Virus record (IMG/VR): IMGVR_UViG_3300005681_000033
Location: 32,001 to 96,000 of that record
Reading direction: 5' to 3' (one strand)
Length of the DNA stretch: 64,000 nucleotides
DNA from: a virus
Under the pieces are notes generated by a model, which saw only the letters and a program-made list of their open reading frames with translations, was not told the origin of the DNA and ran no database searches. A program made the translations under genes and the position numbers. This document shows positions 25,699 to 46,333 of the stretch, piece by piece (the stretch's first letter is position 1; each line of letters opens with the position of its first letter).

Positions 25699-27861
25699 TT
25701 ACGCAGCACTTTGAACTTGGCTGATGTCAATGTTAATTGGGATGAACAAGATTGCAGTAGCAAGCTTGATTTCAACTTTAACTTCCATGATTGGACCTGA
25801 AATCTTAACTTTAGCGTTTTTGAAACCCAAAGGAGCATCGTCAGAAGCAGCAATCAATTTTTGTTTTTTGTATTGGTCCATTTTAGAAGCCAAGAAAGCA
25901 ACTGCAGTAGAAGCATCTACATCAGCCAAAGATTGACCAACGAAAGCAACTTGAAAACTTGCAGCTAAATCAAGAGCAACTAAATCAGCAGCATACATAG
26001 CTTGGATTGAGTTGTAAACGAAGTTTGTATCAATACCATAAGTAGTTTGATCACAAACCCATTTAACACCAACAACTGCTTTTTCAAGGAAAAGCAATCC
26101 AGCATCCAAAGCTTCTTCGATTTGACCTGGAGAACCAGAATCGAAACCAGAAGGATCTGTGTAAGCAATTACATTTGCAAACTTATTAGTGATAGATTTG
26201 TAGAATCCAGCAGCTTGCATACCAGCAGCGATAGCCGCAGTGTGCCAAGGTAATTGATTTACTACAACACCAGCAGAGTTTGCCTGACTAGTTTTTTGCA
26301 TAGCCAATGAAACACGAGCATTTGCTAATGATTGAGCGCGAGACTTAGCGTCAGCATAAGAACCCCAGAAAGATAAGAAAGCAGATCTGTGCTTTTTGAT
26401 CTTAGAAGTTGACATTTTAAGTACGTGACTCTTAACCAATGCATTTACAGCATCGATAGTATATGTAGAACCAGATTCTGATAATCCTTCGGCGATATCT
26501 TCAGAAGCATCTCGACTAAATAAAGGAACAACAAAATTTACATCAATGCTTTCCATTTCTGTAACCGCAGATACGATATTTGCAGCTGAAGTACTTCCTT
26601 TAGAACCACCAGATAAAAATACCTTTGAAGCCATTGGAAGTGGCAATCCAGCTGTTGCAGTAGCGGAATAGCTAAGTGCAGCAGATTGACCAGCAGCTTT
26701 TGCAAAATTTGCAGCAGCTTTTTTGATTCGACCTGGAGTCAAATCAGCAGCTGTTGAACAGATTGGCTGAGCCGACATGTTGTCCAATGCAACTGGTGAT
26801 GTTTGTGTAGAAGCAGCAACAACAGAGCAAGTGTATCCTGTTTGTGAATTGATATACGCAGCTAGATCAGATAATGTCAAATATTGATTTAAGCTGATTG
26901 ATAAGTTTGCACCAGAACCACCAGTTACGGTAGTAGACAATGTACTATCAGAGATAGTTACAGTTGCAGTAGTTCCTTCGTATCCAATTAATAGAGCGAT
27001 TTCAGCAGCAACAAGGAAAGCCTCATTGGTGTTGTTGTCTTGTCTATTAATGTCAAGTTCAACTTCAGGTTCTTGGGCAGAAACATTTAATCCTGGATCA
27101 TGGCCAATAGCATCTAAATCACCAGGTGTAGAGTCGATAAGCTCAAAAGCTTTACCCCAACCTTTTAAGTTAGCATTTGCATCAGCATCCATTGTAAATT
27201 TTAATGTATCAGTTGCAGTTCCAGCAGAAGCTTCGATACCAGCAGGTAATAAGGCATTTAATTCTACAATCAAAGTAGCAAGGTCAGCATGGTCAGCAGG
27301 AGTGTTGCTCAATGTTACAGAAGCAGAAGCTCCACCGTTTAAACGGATGGCAAAGTTTAAACCATTTAAAGCAGCACCGAAAGCAGAGATTACAGAACCT
27401 GTAATACTAGGAGCAACCTCGGAAATAGATTGAAATACTTGATAAGAGTATTTGTTTCCATCTAAACCCCAGTTCTTGTCTTTTAAAGTACCGTAGTTGG
27501 TAGGGATAATAGCCTGTGCTTTACCGCTAATGTTGGTTTTAGAAATATAAATTCTGTTAGCAGCTCCACTGATGTTTGCATCAGAAGAAGGAGAAGCTAA
27601 TGCTCGGAAAGCATCAACGATTGGACCGCTGATATATTTCTTTTGCACTTCTTGCAATTGATCTGGTGTATAGAAGTTATCTTTCAGTAAATCACCATTT
27701 GCTGAATCGATACCTTTAGAAGCAGCTCCACCAGAAGCCTCGCCCATGATTACGATGTTTCCAGAACTAGCAACACCTACTGGTGTGGATTTGACATTAA
27801 CGTCAAAATACGAACCAGGTCTGTTAGTGTTTACTGTATCGGTAGTTAGTCTTTGTGCCAT
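25699..27861 (-). CDS. contractile tail sheath protein
   Basis: 720 aa; RPGSY, I.MGEA.GG, LSGG.KG, DQTTY, C-terminal FI.I motifs. Confidence 0.88.
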   Translation of the reverse strand: MAQRLTTDTVNTNRPGSYFDVNVKSTPVGVASSGNIVIMGEASGGAASKGIDSANGDLLKDNFYTPDQLQEVQKKYISGPIVDAFRALASPSSDANISGAANRIYISKTNISGKAQAIIPTNYGTLKDKNWGLDGNKYSYQVFQSISEVAPSITGSVISAFGAALNGLNFAIRLNGGASASVTLSNTPADHADLATLIVELNALLPAGIEASAGTATDTLKFTMDADANANLKGWGKAFELIDSTPGDLDAIGHDPGLNVSAQEPEVELDINRQDNNTNEAFLVAAEIALLIGYEGTTATVTISDSTLSTTVTGGSGANLSISLNQYLTLSDLAAYINSQTGYTCSVVAASTQTSPVALDNMSAQPICSTAADLTPGRIKKAAANFAKAAGQSAALSYSATATAGLPLPMASKVFLSGGSKGSTSAANIVSAVTEMESIDVNFVVPLFSRDASEDIAEGLSESGSTYTIDAVNALVKSHVLKMSTSKIKKHRSAFLSFWGSYADAKSRAQSLANARVSLAMQKTSQANSAGVVVNQLPWHTAAIAAGMQAAGFYKSITNKFANVIAYTDPSGFDSGSPGQIEEALDAGLLFLEKAVVGVKWVCDQTTYGIDTNFVYNSIQAMYAADLVALDLAASFQVAFVGQSLADVDASTAVAFLASKMDQYKKQKLIAASDDAPLGFKNAKVKISGPIMEVKVEIKLATAILFIPINIDISQVQSAA

Positions 27862-30257: not shown

Positions 30258-31028
30258 TTAATCCTTTCCGTTATACTTCTCAAAAATTGCTGGAAGAATG
30301 TCTTTTTCCCAAGTTTGCATGGCCCAATCAAAAGCCTTATCGAGAATCTTATTGCCTTGTCGACCTGGGTGTACCCACAGACCTTCATTTTTATGTTTTT
30401 CGCTTATTACACGAAAGGTCATAATATCTCTGCGAACACTTCCATCTTTTTGTTTTGTTTGATAAACACTAACGCCCTTAGTTAAAGGGTTTTTGTGAAT
30501 ATCTTTTTGGGCAATTGCTCTTGGATTGTTAAATTGAAACGAATGTAATCTTCCGATTCGTGGACTTCCATCTTCATTTTTTTCAATTTTCTTCCAGGCA
30601 ACGCCCTTTTTTTTCAACTCGTACTGAATCTCTTTAGCCAAGTCATAAGCTTTGGGAGATTGTTCTGTTGGATTTTTATTATGTTTAAATGGTATAATGG
30701 CATATTTTCCATTCTTACCCTGTCTGGCAGATTTACCGTTCAGTAACTCTTCCATAAATCCAGATTTGCGACCTTCTTCAATCCACATCGCTGGTTCTTT
30801 TAAAGTAACTACCCAAAAATTTGGAGCTGGATTTGAGAATTCAACATTGTCCTTATACATTTTAGAAAGACTTGTAAGTTCTTCTGTAGCAAGTTCCAAA
30901 GTTTTAGCGTGAGTCATTGATGCAAGATTTTCTACACCCTTGGTAAGGTCTTCTTGAACATCTTTTTTAACACCGTCTAAATGCTTGGAAAGTCTTTCAA
31001 TATCAACATTAAACTTTAAATTACTCAT
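30258..31028 (-). CDS. putative neck/tail-completion protein (start MSNLK)
   Basis: WIEEG...YAIIPFKH...TFRVIS...WVHPG motifs of myophage neck/completion proteins. Confidence 0.6.
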   Translation of the reverse strand: MSNLKFNVDIERLSKHLDGVKKDVQEDLTKGVENLASMTHAKTLELATEELTSLSKMYKDNVEFSNPAPNFWVVTLKEPAMWIEEGRKSGFMEELLNGKSARQGKNGKYAIIPFKHNKNPTEQSPKAYDLAKEIQYELKKKGVAWKKIEKNEDGSPRIGRLHSFQFNNPRAIAQKDIHKNPLTKGVSVYQTKQKDGSVRRDIMTFRVISEKHKNEGLWVHPGRQGNKILDKAFDWAMQTWEKDILPAIFEKYNGKD

Positions 31029-32786
31029 CGTCTTGACTTGACTGACCAGCTTGATGTGTCGGTCGATCACCCATGTATGGTTTATGACTCTTAGATTTTC
31101 CACCCATTTTTGGATGATGTTGAGGTCTGTTTTTCAAACCAGCCTTATTGTGGTTGGTTGCAGTTGGATCGCCGTCAAAATCTTTCAAAAATCCAGTAGT
31201 TCCTTGTCTCCAGGATTCAGAGCCAGTACGACCATCGATAACTTTTAATTTACCGTGATGCACAGCACCAAGCGGCGGTTGCGGCTTGGGAATGTGTTTC
31301 GTACCCTTGTCTGGCAGGTTCTTAGGGTCTTTCGGAGCCTGCCCGTTTACTTTTTTTCAGATGGTTTTTCATCATTAGGTTGTGCATCTTGGTTAGCTGG
31401 TTGAGCTACCTGGTCTTCACCTTGATCATCAGCTTCAGGCATTGCCTCAGCCATTTGATTAGTATCAGCAGCTTGTTGCATATCTTGCTCTGGAGCAAAA
31501 CCTAATTTTTTAGCCATAGAAATCATAGAACGTAACATGGTTAATGTTGCATTATATAGATCAGGATTTTGTTCGCGTGCTTGCTCTAGCATCATTTTGT
31601 TGTCTTTGAAAGCTAACAATGCATTTGCAATATCTTGTTTCAATTCTTGATGATCAGCATCATCAGCAGAATCATCACCTTCAGGCGACATTTCATCACC
31701 TTCTTGATCATCAGACATATCGTCATGAATCATATCTGCTAATGGATCTTCGTCGCCAGAAGCTGTATCTTCAGAACTTAATTCTTGATCGTCTGAATCT
31801 TCTTCGGAGTCTTCGAACTCACCTTCATGAGGAGCATGATGACCATCAAAAGAATCATCTTCAGAATCATTATCTGGAAGGTCGTCGCTTTGGTCTGGAG
31901 CGTCTTCCATATCTGCCTCGTCTTCTTGTTGCTCACCGTCAGCCGTTCCAAAATCTTCTTCAGTTTTTCCATCGATTTCTCCGTGTTTTTGTTTAGGAGA
32001 TTTGTTTGCAGGTGCAGAATCATCAGGACTATTTAAAGCTTCTTCGTTGTCGTCGGACACATCATCCTCATTTCCAATTGGAGCTTCATCAGAATCATCA
32101 GAATCTGAATCAGCATCTTGTGCGTTAGGGTCAGCTGCTGGTGGTGTAGCAGGTGCAGGTTTATTCATAGCTTTGTTTTTTGGCATAGCTTTGTTATCTT
32201 GAATATTTGTATTTGCTTCAGCCTCTGCACCTTCTTCAGCAGGAGCTTTTGGAACAATACTGTCTTCCTCAGCACCTTCTTCTGGTGCTACTTCTTCAGC
32301 TTGTGATTCGTTATCTTCCATAGCTTGATCTTCTAGATCACCTTCAGCTGGAATTTCTGGAGCTTGGTCAATATCTTGTGATGGATCTTCATCACTAGAT
32401 TCGTCTGAAAGATAATCTTCCATATTAGGATCATAGTGAATCGTTTGATTTTTACCATTCATTTTGCCATAGATTAGGGCTTTAGAAGCCTGTGACATAG
32501 AAGCGCCCACACCAACAGTTAAACCATGACCAGACGATTCTTGATAATCTTGTCTGATGGAATCCATTTGCGCAAGAGCGTCGTCTGGAACTAAATAAAT
32601 AGCTTCATCTCCAGAGCCAGTGATTTTTTTACCACCAATTCCCTCTGCCCATTCATCGATCTTTTTGTGTGCTTGATCAATAGTAGAACTTGCGTTCGCT
32701 AAATCCTGGTGATCATCATTGGCAATTGCGTTACCAATTCTAGTACCAACATCATCTCCGTTCACCGCCAAGTAGACATTACCCAT
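31021..32786 (-). CDS. predicted -1 frameshift fusion product (~588 aa) of the mCpol-like gene with a basic 109-aa extension
   Basis: A_AAA_AAG at 31356-31350 directly before TAA; -1 frame open 31350-31021; pseudoknot 6 nt downstream. Confidence 0.7.
31303..31356 (-). promoter_or_regulatory. programmed -1 ribosomal frameshift signal (slippery heptamer + H-type pseudoknot)
   Basis: A_AAA_AAG; stem GGCAGG(31343-38)/CCTGCC(31318-13); loop ACCCT(31328-24) pairs with AGGGT(31307-03). Confidence 0.75.
31347..32786 (-). CDS. mCpol-like (minimal CRISPR polymerase / nucleotide cyclase palm) domain fused to long acidic disordered region
   Basis: YLAVNGDDVG...ND...L...S...GG..I..SGDE...LTVGVG....A.KAL..GK..GKN in first ~120 aa. 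Confidence 0.7.
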   Translation of the reverse strand: MGNVYLAVNGDDVGTRIGNAIANDDHQDLANASSTIDQAHKKIDEWAEGIGGKKITGSGDEAIYLVPDDALAQMDSIRQDYQESSGHGLTVGVGASMSQASKALIYGKMNGKNQTIHYDPNMEDYLSDESSDEDPSQDIDQAPEIPAEGDLEDQAMEDNESQAEEVAPEEGAEEDSIVPKAPAEEGAEAEANTNIQDNKAMPKNKAMNKPAPATPPAADPNAQDADSDSDDSDEAPIGNEDDVSDDNEEALNSPDDSAPANKSPKQKHGEIDGKTEEDFGTADGEQQEDEADMEDAPDQSDDLPDNDSEDDSFDGHHAPHEGEFEDSEEDSDDQELSSEDTASGDEDPLADMIHDDMSDDQEGDEMSPEGDDSADDADHQELKQDIANALLAFKDNKMMLEQAREQNPDLYNATLTMLRSMISMAKKLGFAPEQDMQQAADTNQMAEAMPEADDQGEDQVAQPANQDAQPNDEKPSEKK

Positions 32787-33324
32787 TTTGCAACTCCTTA
32801 ATTTTATTACTTTTCTTTAAATTTTCTGAAGCTGGCAAATACTGCAAATTCCAAGGAACATGCAATCCACAAACATCTGGATGATTTAAAGGAATGATAT
32901 GATCGACATGAAATCCTTTTGGACAATTGTTGTAAATATCTTTAATTTCATTCATTACATTTGTAAAAGTAGCTTTTTGAACTTTAGCTCTTCTAATACT
33001 TGCTTTATAAGCAATTTTACTTTTGTTATTTGAAGCCCATTGTTTTTCTCTAGCTCTATACTTTTCTTTATTTGCTAAATAATAGTTTTTACGATACTCA
33101 AGTATTTCTGGCTTGATTGCAATCAATCTTGAATATTCTTTCATTTTTGAAATACCATAGTCACTTGATCTATATTTTTTATCTGCTTTGGATTGCCAAG
33201 ATTTTACCTTATCTTTATTCCTTGCTCTATATTGTTTTTGATAAGTATAATGACAAGTTTTACACCATCTCTGTGTAAACTCTGTTAGATTTTTCTCTAC
33301 TTTGCATTTCGTACATTTTTTCAT
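32779..33324 (-). CDS. HNH homing endonuclease
   Basis: N-terminal CxxC pairs; HVDHIIPL...CGLHVPWNLQYL...N. Confidence 0.85.
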   Translation of the reverse strand: MKKCTKCKVEKNLTEFTQRWCKTCHYTYQKQYRARNKDKVKSWQSKADKKYRSSDYGISKMKEYSRLIAIKPEILEYRKNYYLANKEKYRAREKQWASNNKSKIAYKASIRRAKVQKATFTNVMNEIKDIYNNCPKGFHVDHIIPLNHPDVCGLHVPWNLQYLPASENLKKSNKIKELQNG

Positions 33325-36200: not shown

Positions 36201-36845
36201 CTAATTGATTTTATTGCTTTTCTTTAAATTATCAACCATCCAAAGAGGTTGTAAATTCGTATAATGACACGCCTTAATGATTTCTTCTCTGTCCGTTAGA
36301 TTAAAACTTGACAATGGCTTGATGTGATCGATATGCCAACCAAATTTACCGTAGTTATTCCAAGACATATTTTTCTCAAATTTTGTTTCTATGTATTTTT
36401 TAAAAAAATCTAGAGTACAACCTAGATCTTTTATAGCAGAACCAGGTTTATTTCTATTGATTGCGTTATTTAGCCTAGTTCTTAGATTACAAGCAATGCG
36501 AAATTGTAAATCTTCTTTTTTTCTCTTTTTGTGATTAGTAACGCTTTTTTTAATTAAAATATTTCTATTAGCTTCGTAATATGCCTTGCTTTTTGCTTTA
36601 ATTTTATCTGGATTTTTCAGGCTATAGTTTTTATAAATAGTTTTCATTTTTTCTACATTGTTTTTTCTATAAAAACCATTTTTAGCCAATTCTTTTGTTT
36701 TGTTTTTGTTGTAATACACTTGTCTGTATTGTTTTTGACAAATTTTACAAATATCTCGAAAACCTGTTTTTGAAGAACAATGTTTGTTAAACTCAGTTAT
36801 TTCTTTAATATTTTGGCATTTTTTGCAAAAATGTGTTGTGTTCAT
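36201..36845 (-). CDS. HNH endonuclease
   Basis: CxxC pairs; WHIDHIKPLSSF...HYTNLQPLW..DN..KSNK. Confidence 0.85.
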   Translation of the reverse strand: MNTTHFCKKCQNIKEITEFNKHCSSKTGFRDICKICQKQYRQVYYNKNKTKELAKNGFYRKNNVEKMKTIYKNYSLKNPDKIKAKSKAYYEANRNILIKKSVTNHKKRKKEDLQFRIACNLRTRLNNAINRNKPGSAIKDLGCTLDFFKKYIETKFEKNMSWNNYGKFGWHIDHIKPLSSFNLTDREEIIKACHYTNLQPLWMVDNLKKSNKIN

Positions 36846-43537: not shown

Positions 43538-43815
43538 CAGACACACAACAAAAATTTTTAGAAATCTCAAAGCGATATGAAGCTCTTAAAGAAGAAATGA
43601 AGGCTTTAAAACCTACTCTTCAAGAGTTGATGACTGAATTAAAAGTTGGAACTCATTTTCAAGACCCAGAAACACAACTTGTTTATCGCATTGAAGTTCC
43701 GACTGGAACTTATGTGTCTTTTGACCCTATCACTTACACTCGTACTAAAAAGGTTGGCGAGGATAAAGGTTCTTTGGCTAAGAGTGAAGCTCAAAAGCTT
43801 GGATATAATATCTAA
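43534..43815 (+). CDS. hypothetical protein
   Basis: AGGAG RBS. Confidence 0.7.
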   Translation: MTDTQQKFLEISKRYEALKEEMKALKPTLQELMTELKVGTHFQDPETQLVYRIEVPTGTYVSFDPITYTRTKKVGEDKGSLAKSEAQKLGYNI

Positions 43816-44207
43816 TTATTCATCCAGTATTTTAATGCAATGTTGTGTTGGATAGGCACGTGCAAATCTGACACAACATAATTTGGATTCATATAGTGCC
43901 ATGAATCTACCTCTTTGTCCGGGTCTTTCGATGCATCTAACATTTGCTTTGGGTCTGGGGTCACATGGAACAAATACAATAAAAGATTTTGTTCTTTATC
44001 CCAATGCGAAGCAACAAGCTTGATATCTTCTACATCCAAACCTGTTTCTTCTTTTAGTTCTCTAATAGCACCTTCATATGGATCTTCGCCCTCATTCAAG
44101 TGTCCACCCGGAACTGTCCATTTTTTATTGTCGTTGCGAACGCCCATTAAGATATTATCGCTATGATCTGTTAATAGACAAATTGCAACTCTTCGCGAAT
44201 TAGCCAT
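43812..44207 (-). CDS. Nudix hydrolase
   Basis: Nudix box GGHLNEGEDPYEGAIRELKEETGL. Confidence 0.92.
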   Translation of the reverse strand: MANSRRVAICLLTDHSDNILMGVRNDNKKWTVPGGHLNEGEDPYEGAIRELKEETGLDVEDIKLVASHWDKEQNLLLYLFHVTPDPKQMLDASKDPDKEVDSWHYMNPNYVVSDLHVPIQHNIALKYWMNN

Positions 44208-44212
44208 TTATC

Positions 44213-46333
44213 CTACTTCTTTTTTTCGTTTTTGTAAAGAAATTCAGATTTGGCAATTTTCATTTTTGGCTGTGCCTGTGGCATTTCTGGTTGAGCAGGC
44301 ATTGGAGCTGGTTGATTTTGAGCTACCGGTTGTTGTGTAGGCATTGGAGCTGGACGCGGTTTCATTCGCACTACATTTGGAGGCAATTCTTGCTGCATTT
44401 GTGGTTGAACGGCTTGTTTTTTAGCTTGTCTATCCAACACAGCACCTGGCTGCCTATTTGTAATAGCAGCGTCTAAGGTTCTGTCTGCCTTAGACCATCC
44501 TTTATCTGGGTGAAATTTCATTTGACCACTAAAAATAGCATGTAATCGTGCTTTGTTTTCAGGAGAAAGGTTTCTCGCTTGACGAATTAAATCGACATAC
44601 TTTTCCTTTTTGCCTGGAACCTTAACACGAGTGGCAATCACCTTATTTGGATCTTCAACGGAAGTTCTCTGAGGTGCATTTTTATCCTTTACTGGAATTG
44701 ACACCTGACTTGCTGGCATCCCAAGAAAACGACGAATCAACTGCTCTGCAGCCATTGGTTGCACTTCACCTTGAGATCGTTTTTGTTGCATATATCCATA
44801 TTGCTTTTGAACATCCGAATATTGCTTATCCATTAAACGCTGTCCATCTTCAAGACTAACACCTTCAGGCATTAACATTAAATGTGCAATTTCATGAACA
44901 ATTGCTTCAGGATTCCATTGAGCTTCGAATTTACCTGAACGCCAATCTGGTTTATCCACACCAATTTCATTGTCTGCTTTTCTACGCTCACCTGTCTTGT
45001 CGTTTACCTTACCACCTGATGGTTGCAAATCAAGACCTAAAAACTTATCAACGAATTTTTTGATATGATTGATGTGCTTATCACGCATTGCAGATTTCGC
45101 TGCAGGTTGAGAATTGGTTCCAAATACCTTTTTACGTTGTTCGCGTACATTTTTAGAGGCTTTGTTAATATCTGAGTGTCCAAGCTTACGAACAATAACA
45201 AATTCAGATTTAACAACATCGACTTCAGACTTAGGAAGGTTTGGTTTTGGCATATCTTTCAATTCTTTCAATTTTCTAGAATGCATTTGACGTGCAACTT
45301 GTTTTTGTCTTTCTTTTCCACCAGATTTAATAGGTGTTTTTTTATTACTTCCTGCGATAGCCATGACACCAGCTCTACTATGAGTTCCAGTCCCAACATC
45401 CGACGTATGAACTCCCTTTAAATCTTTTGCCAATGCGTCACCCTGTACTTTTTCAGATGAAACTCCAGCACCACAAGACGCAACAAGAGCTTTACGAACA
45501 TTTGAATCGTATTTACTAAGCTGTTTTTTCTCGTTCTTTTGCCATGCTGGTTTCATTTTTGGCATTTTACCGTAAATTTGAGTGCCAGTTTTGGCTTTTG
45601 GTTCAGCTGCATAATTGATTTTATCACCAACGTGCATAGTGCTCGGAGCATTTTTTGGACTGAAGATGCGTTTAGGGATACGACCACTTCCAGGAGGAGA
45701 ATTCAAATCTGCTTTGTAAATGAAAGGAATCTCACCTTTCATGATTTGACACGAAGCTTCGTCTGCTTTAGACATAACATCTTGAATAAATGCAAATTTA
45801 CCAGAATCTGACTGTTTTTGGGCTTTGTCGTCTACTTTCAATTCGTAAGCTTCACAAACTTTATTGCAAGGAGTCAAAGTAACAGATACTTTTCTTGCAA
45901 TACATTTTGTAATAATAGCACCTTGTTTTTCAACACGAGAGCCTTCGATAGAAAAATTGATTAGTTTTTTGGCTTCTTTGTTAAGAGGTGTCATTTGGTC
46001 GTACTTGAGCATTGCAGCTACTTCACTAGCAGCTTTGTGACCAACCGAATCAAATAATTCACCAGCAACATAAATAAAAGGCATTTTAAGCTTATCCCAA
46101 AATTCCTTTTGATGTTCATTTTCGCAATCAGAGCGTTTTAAGATTTTCTTGGCTTCCCAAATCTTACCTACAATAGAAGAAGGGCTTTTAGAGTCATGTT
46201 CGTAGTTAAAAGTTCCATCTTTTGTAAGACTTGTAATATCTACGCCTTCAATTTGAATACGTTCGCCAGAACTATCTAAGTGTTCTGAGGCAGCGATGCC
46301 ATGAATGAAAGTTCCACGTTTTTGATCAGACAT
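44213..46333 (-). CDS. prohead (capsid maturation) protease with long C-terminal extension containing an HExxH domain
   Basis: GIAASEHLDSSGE..NYEH..VG..FSIEG..VSVT..P.N in first ~165 aa; HEIAH at aa 480-484. Confidence 0.8.
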   Translation of the reverse strand: MSDQKRGTFIHGIAASEHLDSSGERIQIEGVDITSLTKDGTFNYEHDSKSPSSIVGKIWEAKKILKRSDCENEHQKEFWDKLKMPFIYVAGELFDSVGHKAASEVAAMLKYDQMTPLNKEAKKLINFSIEGSRVEKQGAIITKCIARKVSVTLTPCNKVCEAYELKVDDKAQKQSDSGKFAFIQDVMSKADEASCQIMKGEIPFIYKADLNSPPGSGRIPKRIFSPKNAPSTMHVGDKINYAAEPKAKTGTQIYGKMPKMKPAWQKNEKKQLSKYDSNVRKALVASCGAGVSSEKVQGDALAKDLKGVHTSDVGTGTHSRAGVMAIAGSNKKTPIKSGGKERQKQVARQMHSRKLKELKDMPKPNLPKSEVDVVKSEFVIVRKLGHSDINKASKNVREQRKKVFGTNSQPAAKSAMRDKHINHIKKFVDKFLGLDLQPSGGKVNDKTGERRKADNEIGVDKPDWRSGKFEAQWNPEAIVHEIAHLMLMPEGVSLEDGQRLMDKQYSDVQKQYGYMQQKRSQGEVQPMAAEQLIRRFLGMPASQVSIPVKDKNAPQRTSVEDPNKVIATRVKVPGKKEKYVDLIRQARNLSPENKARLHAIFSGQMKFHPDKGWSKADRTLDAAITNRQPGAVLDRQAKKQAVQPQMQQELPPNVVRMKPRPAPMPTQQPVAQNQPAPMPAQPEMPQAQPKMKIAKSEFLYKNEKKK

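Follow-up and report, generated by a model that had tools for sequence, protein, structure and literature searches.

Gene organization of the locus

The DNA analysed here, hereafter the window, is a 64,000-nucleotide (nt) stretch of a virus (positions 32,001 to 96,000 of the 166.8-kb IMG/VR virus record IMGVR_UViG_3300005681_000033; GC content of the window, 37.5%), and this report concerns a candidate programmed -1 ribosomal frameshift at the end of one of its genes, designated gene A, together with the extension that the shift would add to the gene A product and the adjoining gene, designated gene B. All genes at the locus (30258-32786) are on the minus strand, and the coordinates of the features are collected in Table 1. 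Gene A is preceded by a strong Shine-Dalgarno (SD) sequence (AAGGAG; anti-SD duplex, -8.7 kcal/mol), and its 3′ end reads ...TCT GAA AAA AAG TAA, the encoded protein ending in ...SEKK. The -1 open reading frame (ORF) would yield a peptide beginning with VNGQAPKDPKNLPDK..., and the predicted trans-frame product, A-ext, would be a protein of 588 amino acids (aa) and 63.4 kDa with the junction peptide ...PSEKKVNGQAPK (...SEKKVNGQAPK).

Table 1. Coordinates of genes, recoding signals and predicted domains at the gene A-gene B locus (positions of the window; pI, isoelectric point)
Feature	Position	Strand	Description
mCpol (minimal CRISPR polymerase)-like palm domain	32436..32774	-	Gene A residues 5-117; Pfam PF18182
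Gene A, 0-frame product	31347..32786	-	479 aa, 51.6 kDa, pI 4.05; ORF and homologues
TGA closing the -1 frame, directly 5′ of the heptamer	31359-31357	-	Arrangement also found in L003
Slippery heptamer A_AAA_AAG	31356-31350	-	In phase with gene A (GA-A AAA AAG)
0-frame stop TAA, directly 3′ of the heptamer	31349-31347	-	
-1 frame extension	31021..31350	-	109 codons and TAA (31023-31021); 11.8 kDa, pI 9.8
Stem-loop, predicted stimulator	31313..31343	-	GGCAGG(C)TC pairs with GA(A)CCTGCC; 13-nt loop; minimum-free-energy fold
Proposed pseudoknot pairing	31303..31328	-	ACCCT 31328-31324 with AGGGT 31307-31303; present, not conserved
ATGAGTAA, gene B start overlapping the extension stop	31021..31028	-	Termination-reinitiation geometry
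Gene B	30258..31028	-	256 aa; probable neck / head-tail connector-type protein; no SD of its own

Heptamers of the AAAAAAR type occur 100 times on the two strands of the window, and 13 of them lie in the X_XXY_YYZ phase of an ORF that is open for at least 100 codons upstream. A long -1 ORF follows only one of these 13, namely the site at 31356 with its 109 codons, the next best being 15 codons. In the scoring of translation starts by anti-SD pairing, values of -4 kcal/mol or lower were obtained for 70% of the gene starts of the window versus 11% of background positions. The only early start codon of the -1 ORF in the window, GTG 31263, has no SD (-2.1 kcal/mol), and neither an SD nor an ATG for independent initiation of the extension was found in the window. 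A preliminary description of this DNA, made from the letters of the sequence, had already noted the 479-aa gene ending in GAA AAA AAG TAA, the -1 frame open for 109 codons without a good SD or ATG, and a GGCAGG/CCTGCC stem 6 nt past the heptamer, and each of these was found again here.

Conservation of the slip site in related phages

Relatives were collected by scanning IMG/VR and JGI/ENA metagenome contigs with three queries, namely gene B, the extension and the gene A N-terminal domain. Fifteen distinct loci of the split type were obtained, namely the window (WIN), L003, L006-L013, L016 and L018-L021, with L014 and L024 merged into L013, L017 into L016, and L025 into L020. Megablast with the locus and tblastn with the extension gave no match in a phage database of 50,697 records; in those records only gene B gave matches, to Myxococcus phage Mx1 and to some Leptospira phages. 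The extension proteins of the split-type loci are 50-80% identical to that of the window, and the extension homologues amount to 28 clusters at 90% identity and 44 representatives at 50% identity.

In all 15 loci, including the window, gene A or its homologue ends in a heptamer that is in X_XXY_YYZ phase with the upstream ORF (A_AAA_AAG in 14, A_AAA_AAA in L006), the 0-frame stop stands 0-1 codons past it, and the -1 frame stays open for 96-132 codons, encoding a homologous and conserved polypeptide. Conservation in relatives had been named in the preliminary description as a check on its proposal, and in-phase A_AAA_AAR is indeed kept in the 15 distinct loci. The codon before the two Lys codons varies (GAA, GGA, GCA, GTA, TCA or AAA, for E, G, A, V, S or K), its third base being always A, and the second Lys codon is AAG in 14/15 loci, though AAA accounts for 73% of the Lys codons of the window. 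The A run is A6 in eight loci, A7 in the window, A8 in three relatives and A9 in L019; the presence of only A6 in 8/15 loci argues against a homopolymer error as well as against transcriptional slippage. From the heptamer to the LPDK codons the distance is 50, 56, 59 or 62 nt, always in the same phase and with indels in multiples of three. Amino-acid conservation starts at the slip site itself (KK-V-x-G-Q-A-P-K-D-P...), upstream of the internal ATG that is present in some relatives. The conserved phase of the heptamer, the codon choice and the triplet indels are taken as evidence that a signal is maintained at the nucleotide level.

RNA structure around the slip site

The 5′ arm of the window stem (GGCAGG, 31343-31338) starts 6 nt after the heptamer and its 3′ arm (CCTGCC) lies at 31318-31313, and the helix can be extended to nine positions with one C·A mismatch. 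The folding free energy (dG) of the 45-nt hairpin segment, -11.0, falls in the top 4.4% of local segments; since this is modest for the window hairpin alone, its significance rests on conservation in relatives. When 70-75 nt were folded, a hairpin was found to begin 5-6 nt past the heptamer in 14/15 loci, that is, within the 5-9-nt spacing of 3′ stimulators. For segments of 45-48 nt, the folding energies of the hairpin loci lie between -9.8 and -24.5 kcal/mol, and each ranks among the most stable 0-4.4% of the segments of its locus. The 3′ arm coincides with the S/N-L-P codons and the 5′ arm follows a Leu codon, the arms being GGCAG/CTGCC, GGAAG/CTTCC, GGCAA/TTGCC or GGTAG/CTACC.

Covariation was counted over the 10 loci that share the same helix register, in which 96.7% of the cells are paired and five of the nine pairs show double (compensatory) changes; none of 500 shuffles reached any of the main measures, and controls in which the arms were slid gave 17-56% paired cells. 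The loci left out of this count were L003 and L012 (an equally good helix with the register shifted by one), L008 and L016 (other stems) and L019 (no stem). The stems of L008 and L016 are non-homologous, with the spacing unchanged. The first covariation count, made with mixed registers, was weaker, with 82.5% of the cells paired and two double changes.

It had further been proposed in the preliminary description that the loop sequence ACCCT pairs with a downstream AGGGT to form a pseudoknot. Both sequences are present as described, but the pairing is not conserved. For the duplex between loop and downstream sequence, the window gives a value of -7.9 kcal/mol, L006 and L011 give -5 to -6, and L003, L008, L009 and L010 lie at 0 to -2.4; no pseudoknot partner for the loop was found in L012-L021. 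The GGG of AGGGT belongs to the Gly codon of DKGTKH, which is confined to the subclade of the window. An H-type pseudoknot as the conserved stimulator was therefore rejected, the loop-to-downstream pairing being absent in most loci and without covariation support. As judged from the compared sequences, the conserved stimulator is a simple stem-loop.

On the 5′ side, an SD-like element of the GGAGG, GGGAG or GAGGAG type lies at dnaX-like spacing, 8-12 nt upstream of the heptamer, in a number of relatives; L006, L007, L008, L009, L011 and L020 have a strong element, its anti-SD pairing being in the top 0-2% of the positions of gene A, and L010 and L016 a moderate one. The window does not show the tripartite arrangement of dnaX and of insertion sequences (IS), which includes this element, and at the slip sites of the window and of L003, an A7 run with an immediate stop is found in its place.

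In-frame fused homologues and the A9 junction

Both halves are encoded in one frame in four relatives, Mx1 (P0003), P0033, P0034 and L022. The Mx1 homologue (468 aa) has an mCpol-like N-terminus followed by an acidic region and the conserved helical segment, and ends in an in-frame C-terminal tail that aligns colinearly with the -1 product of the window (E 0.003). P0033 (704 aa) and P0034 (588 aa), obtained in an extension-profile search for longer proteins, have the Pfam mCpol domain at the N-terminus and the extension in frame. Between the trans-frame product of the window and P0034, a single BLASTP high-scoring segment pair crosses the junction (residues 1-569/1-582, 36% identity, E 1e-119), and a multiple alignment places the slip-site Lys-Lys on the Lys-Lys-Lys of the fused proteins. 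Since the two-part protein is in one frame in Mx1 and three relatives, the trans-frame product would represent the full-length form of the family; from the in-frame fused homologues it follows no more than that the fusion occurs as a natural protein. The gene A tree, in which two small clades are resolved, does not tell whether the ancestral state was fused or frameshifted.

L019, L022 and P0033 form one tight clade with a common A9 run at the junction, followed by GCCTTAAAAAAG (L019:5398-5418, L022:2131-2151). L022 and P0033 are in frame across the A9 junction; in L019, which has no hairpin (dG -2.1), a -1 shift is required. This frame difference sits in diverged upstream sequence and not in the length of the A run. 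From its sequences, the subclade may have switched to transcriptional slippage or to plain fusion. In L022 / L004 (IMGVR_UViG_3300009149_007551, 7.3 kb), a terminator-like hairpin (GGGTAGG...CCTACCC and a T run) follows the fused gene A, and the neck gene B has the opposite orientation and points towards gene A, the A-to-B coupling geometry being absent there.

Predicted properties of the two products

Gene A encodes an mCpol-like N-terminal domain, an acidic disordered region of about 250 aa, a conserved helical segment and an acidic linker. The match to PF18182 spans model positions 1-113/114, the full domain, with E 1.3e-9 and 38.9 bits versus a gathering cut-off of 26.4, and the mCpol structure of Panoptes OptS (9mnr_A) matches the same domain with E 1.9e-6. 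The domain of this late-operon protein carries the motifs NGDD...SGDE; these are lost in the Mx1 homologue, which is without a GDE-type motif. Outside the mCpol-like domain the protein is strongly acidic (133 Asp and Glu; pI 4.05). In roughly half of the relatives (L009, L012, L016, L018, L020, P0033 and L022), a Lys/Arg-rich region of 100-170 residues replaces the acidic linker before the slip site, and the protein context of the heptamer is thus basic in some lineages and acidic in others, with the signal unchanged.

The extension is basic and rich in Lys, His, Pro and Gly. Its AlphaFold2 model has a mean confidence (pLDDT) of 59.7 and a single beta-hairpin (KLKVIDGRTGSESWRQG), and because of this low confidence and the one hairpin, the extension is read as a mostly disordered interaction tail with one predicted beta-hairpin. 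No match was found in Pfam or PHROGs, and against the ESM Atlas only weak, unnamed matches (0.78 or less) were obtained. Extension residues at about 33-48 (31207-31254; K-V-x-D-G-x-T-G-x3-W-R-x-G) gave profile matches to single blades of PQQ/BamB beta-propellers. These matches, like those to insect cuticle proteins, came from the extension profile search and concern long, multi-hit proteins; homology of the extension to either group was rejected, the resemblance being limited to one hairpin motif, D-G-x-T-G-x3-W-R.

Proposed mechanism and rival explanations

The product of gene A is very probably extended by a programmed -1 ribosomal frameshift at A_AAA_AAG. Most ribosomes would stop at TAA 31349-31347 and release the acidic mCpol-like protein of 479 aa (51.6 kDa). 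A fraction would slip back by one base, the tRNA-Lys in the P and A sites re-pairing from AAA-AAG to AAA-AAA, or else the P-site tRNA would slip alone with the stop codon waiting in the A site. Slippage would be favoured by the stem-loop 6 nt downstream, positioned at the mRNA entrance, and probably also by the adjacent stop codon, which is slow to decode, with further stimulation in many relatives from upstream SD-like pairing. Ribosomes that have shifted would read 109 codons in the -1 frame and complete the 588-aa form of 63.4 kDa with its basic, largely disordered tail, and those ending the extension would reinitiate on the overlapping, SD-less start of gene B, tying B output to the frameshifted fraction. 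We infer that the slippage is ribosomal, that both isoforms are needed in a set ratio and that gene B is reached by such reinitiation. The two isoforms of the preliminary description, a short acidic one and a longer one with a basic, His/Lys-rich tail, are supported by conservation, covariation and the fused homologues.

Several points weigh against programmed frameshifting. Its efficiency could be very low. The window hairpin is the weakest of the set, with a z of only -0.9 versus composition-matched shuffles of this GC-rich stretch; the upstream SD-like element is absent in the window (+0.3 kcal/mol) and also in L003 (-1.9); and no tRNA gene was found in the window. The 15 loci are related to each other and do not represent independent samples, and the 10 loci of the covariation count were chosen for sharing one helix register. 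Most close relatives, moreover, have an MSLPDK ATG about 30-40 nt past the stop, from which separate initiation or termination-reinitiation is conceivable. Were the extension a separate small gene, expressed by reinitiation or from a start of its own, which would be GTG 31263 for the window and the MSLPDK ATG for its relatives, the slippery site would be incidental; at least 22 of the 28 homologous clusters are called as proteins of about 100 aa from the conserved ATG, and a weak SD-like score of -5.5 was obtained at two MSLPDK ATGs. This explanation would leave the in-phase heptamer in 15/15 loci unexplained, and it is very unlikely in view of several further observations. Nine loci (the window, L008, L009, L012, L013, L016, L018, L020 and L021) have no ATG there and carry a codon for Lys, Phe, Gly or another residue. 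GTG 31263, initiation at which had been named in the preliminary description as refuting a frameshift, was looked at and has no SD, whereas 70% of the starts of the phage have one. The starts set by gene callers for the extension are scattered over profile positions 1 to 47, and coding conservation and triplet-only indels reach upstream of the ATG as far as the heptamer. The MSLPDK ATG itself sits within the 3′ side of the hairpin, and in the fused homologues the extension segment is a C-terminal domain.

In transcriptional slippage, RNA polymerase would add an A in some of the mRNAs and the long form would then be translated normally. Such a process requires neither a fixed phase nor a 3′ hairpin, whereas the conserved phase, the 5-6-nt spacer and the covarying stem are ribosomal signals. 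Runs of A9 or T9 slip efficiently in bacteria, as in Thermus dnaX (PMC5009743), and the A7 of the window and the A8 of three relatives count in favour of this explanation; a run of about nine or more A or T is nevertheless found only in L019 and the fused L022, both with A9, and the A6 of 8/15 loci is too short for efficient transcriptional slippage. As an account of the split in general it is highly improbable; within the L019/L022 subclade it may operate, L019 having its A9 without a hairpin, and the closely related L022 and P0033 carrying the A9 junction in frame. If the split stemmed from faulty assembly or sequencing, or from a recent mutation that inactivated the gene, the true gene would be one ORF (A8), as in Mx1, and the split would be functionless. 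The homopolymer at the junction, the existence of fused homologues and the origin of the record in a metagenome assembly are compatible with this, and a homopolymer error was also a worry of the preliminary description. The split recurs, with identical phase, in 14 other distinct assemblies from different samples, making 15 in all, of which eight have only A6, and the 0-frame stop stands 0-1 codons past the heptamer throughout these assemblies. The window extension is recorded as a separate ORF on 18 contigs (P0006), the search for longer proteins gave no near-identical fused form, and a covarying hairpin at the spacing of programmed frameshift signals would be pointless in a plain ORF; an error or inactivation of this kind is thus extremely improbable.

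Gene B, its possible translational coupling and neighbouring genes

The overlap of the extension stop with the SD-less ATG of a neck gene, as given in the preliminary description, was verified: the junction reads ATGAGTAA, and the anti-SD duplex at the gene B ATG (31028) is -2.2 kcal/mol, which corresponds to no SD. In 13/13 loci checked (the window and 12 others), gene B starts at -5 to +11 nt from the extension stop, and the stop/start junction is mostly ATGAGTRA, TAATG or TARATG, with TAATG in Mx1. Gene B is distantly related to its Mx1 homologue (32% identity, E 1e-37). A Foldseek search of the PDB with the gene B model gave no match. The best match of the AlphaFold2 model (pLDDT 78.7) was the SaPI1 neck chain 9mu2_P (VIA-align wide), with a Z of 10.0 and a root-mean-square deviation of 2.9 over 102/109 residues, the next structural match having a Z of 6.9. 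The gene after B matches PF23932 SP10_terminator, and a sheath gene then follows at 25699-27861. On the strength of the 9mu2_P match, the terminator-family gene next to it and the sheath gene beyond, 'neck gene' is a fair label for the predicted gene B product.

From the start/stop adjacency in the loci checked and the lack of an SD in the window, translational coupling of gene B to frameshifting is plausible. A more far-reaching reading, to which we assign a low probability, is that the frameshift is a dosing device for head-tail joining: since gene B lacks an SD and its start lies within the extension stop, B would be made only by frameshifted ribosomes, and the extension would serve to anchor the smaller part of the acidic mCpol-like protein at the neck (or on DNA). 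If so, B and the long isoform would be produced at near 1:1 with the short isoform in excess, the recoding efficiency would set the stoichiometry of a neck component, and a possible route would exist for loading a nucleotide-cyclase-like domain into virions.

Two endonuclease VII/HNH-like genes lie inside the structural operon, at 32779-33324 (-) and 36201-36845 (-) (PHROG 1035; E 4e-19 and 5e-18); the former immediately precedes gene A, with whose start it overlaps. As the corresponding position in L003 has no endonuclease gene, the two look like homing-endonuclease insertions. A NUDIX hydrolase gene at 43812-44207 (-) (PF00293, E 4.6e-19) adjoins a prohead-protease-like gene at 44213-46333.

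Significance of the probable conserved frameshift

With the site described here, phage morphogenesis operons would gain a well-conserved programmed frameshift that belongs neither to the tail-chaperone nor to the capsid-decoration cases. The clade concerned consists of uncultured phages of about 150-170 kb that are distant kin of Myxococcus phage Mx1. No report of the gene A frameshift, or of phage-encoded mCpol in structural operons, was found in the literature. Since gene-calling programs cut the gene in two and give the second half made-up start codons, public databases list the family under a wrong annotation, that of a 'hypothetical protein' of 55-111 aa. Within the family, one junction exists in frameshifted, in-frame and A9-run versions, a natural series in which to ask what maintains the two isoforms. 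Because the domain of gene A is of the mCpol type, as in the Panoptes defence enzyme, the amount made of each form may bear on phage-host signalling, and the conserved stop/start overlap with the neck gene offers a directly testable case of frameshift-dependent translational coupling.

Comparison with known recoding systems

In E. coli no heptamer is more prone to shifting than A_AAA_AAG, which is also the dnaX site, and in some dnaX genes the long form needs the shift, with a 0-frame stop directly after the site (PMC5009743). The gene A cassette resembles E. coli dnaX (tau/gamma) in its heptamer, in the stem-loop about 6 nt downstream and in two isoforms with a common N-terminus, and about half of the relatives also share the SD-like element 8-12 nt upstream. 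In the abutting 0-frame stop and the long product that needs the shift, it agrees with the 'reversed' dnaX genes (PMC5009743), and Thermus dnaX with its transcriptional slippage parallels the A9 subclade of L019 and L022. Gene A differs from dnaX in that it encodes an acidic mCpol-like phage protein and not a clamp-loader subunit, and in that the window has no upstream SD-like element.

The tail assembly chaperone frameshift of the lambda G/GT type was reportedly described by Xu, Hendrix and Duda in 2004. Likeness to it lies in a -1 shift near the 3′ end of a morphogenesis-operon gene, in a minor extended and a major short form, and in conservation across diverged phages. Gene A is placed, however, upstream of gene B, the terminator-like gene and the sheath gene, not between tail tube and tape measure; it has an mCpol-like domain and not a chaperone fold, A_AAA_AAG in place of G_GGA_AAG, and an immediate 0-frame stop. 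The location outside the tail-chaperone locus, as first described, agrees with this gene order and with the Pfam mCpol domain.

A recoded C-terminal module on a fraction of a protein is also known from gene 10A/10B of T7/T3, from Lactobacillus phage A2, from Listeria phages A118, A500 and PSA, and from the TP901-1 tail protein, and related phages encode such extensions either by frameshift or in frame (PMC5009743). The gene A extension differs from these structural extensions in being a predicted basic, mostly disordered tail with one beta-hairpin and not an immunoglobulin-like domain, and the gene A product is not known as a capsid or tail subunit. Finally, the cassette shares with orfAB of IS3/IS911 the A_AAA_AAG heptamer, a 3′ structure, often a 5′ SD-like element, and a fusion made by the shift; it differs in that the IS ORFs overlap extensively and encode a transposase, with structures that are often more elaborate (three-way junction, pseudoknot).

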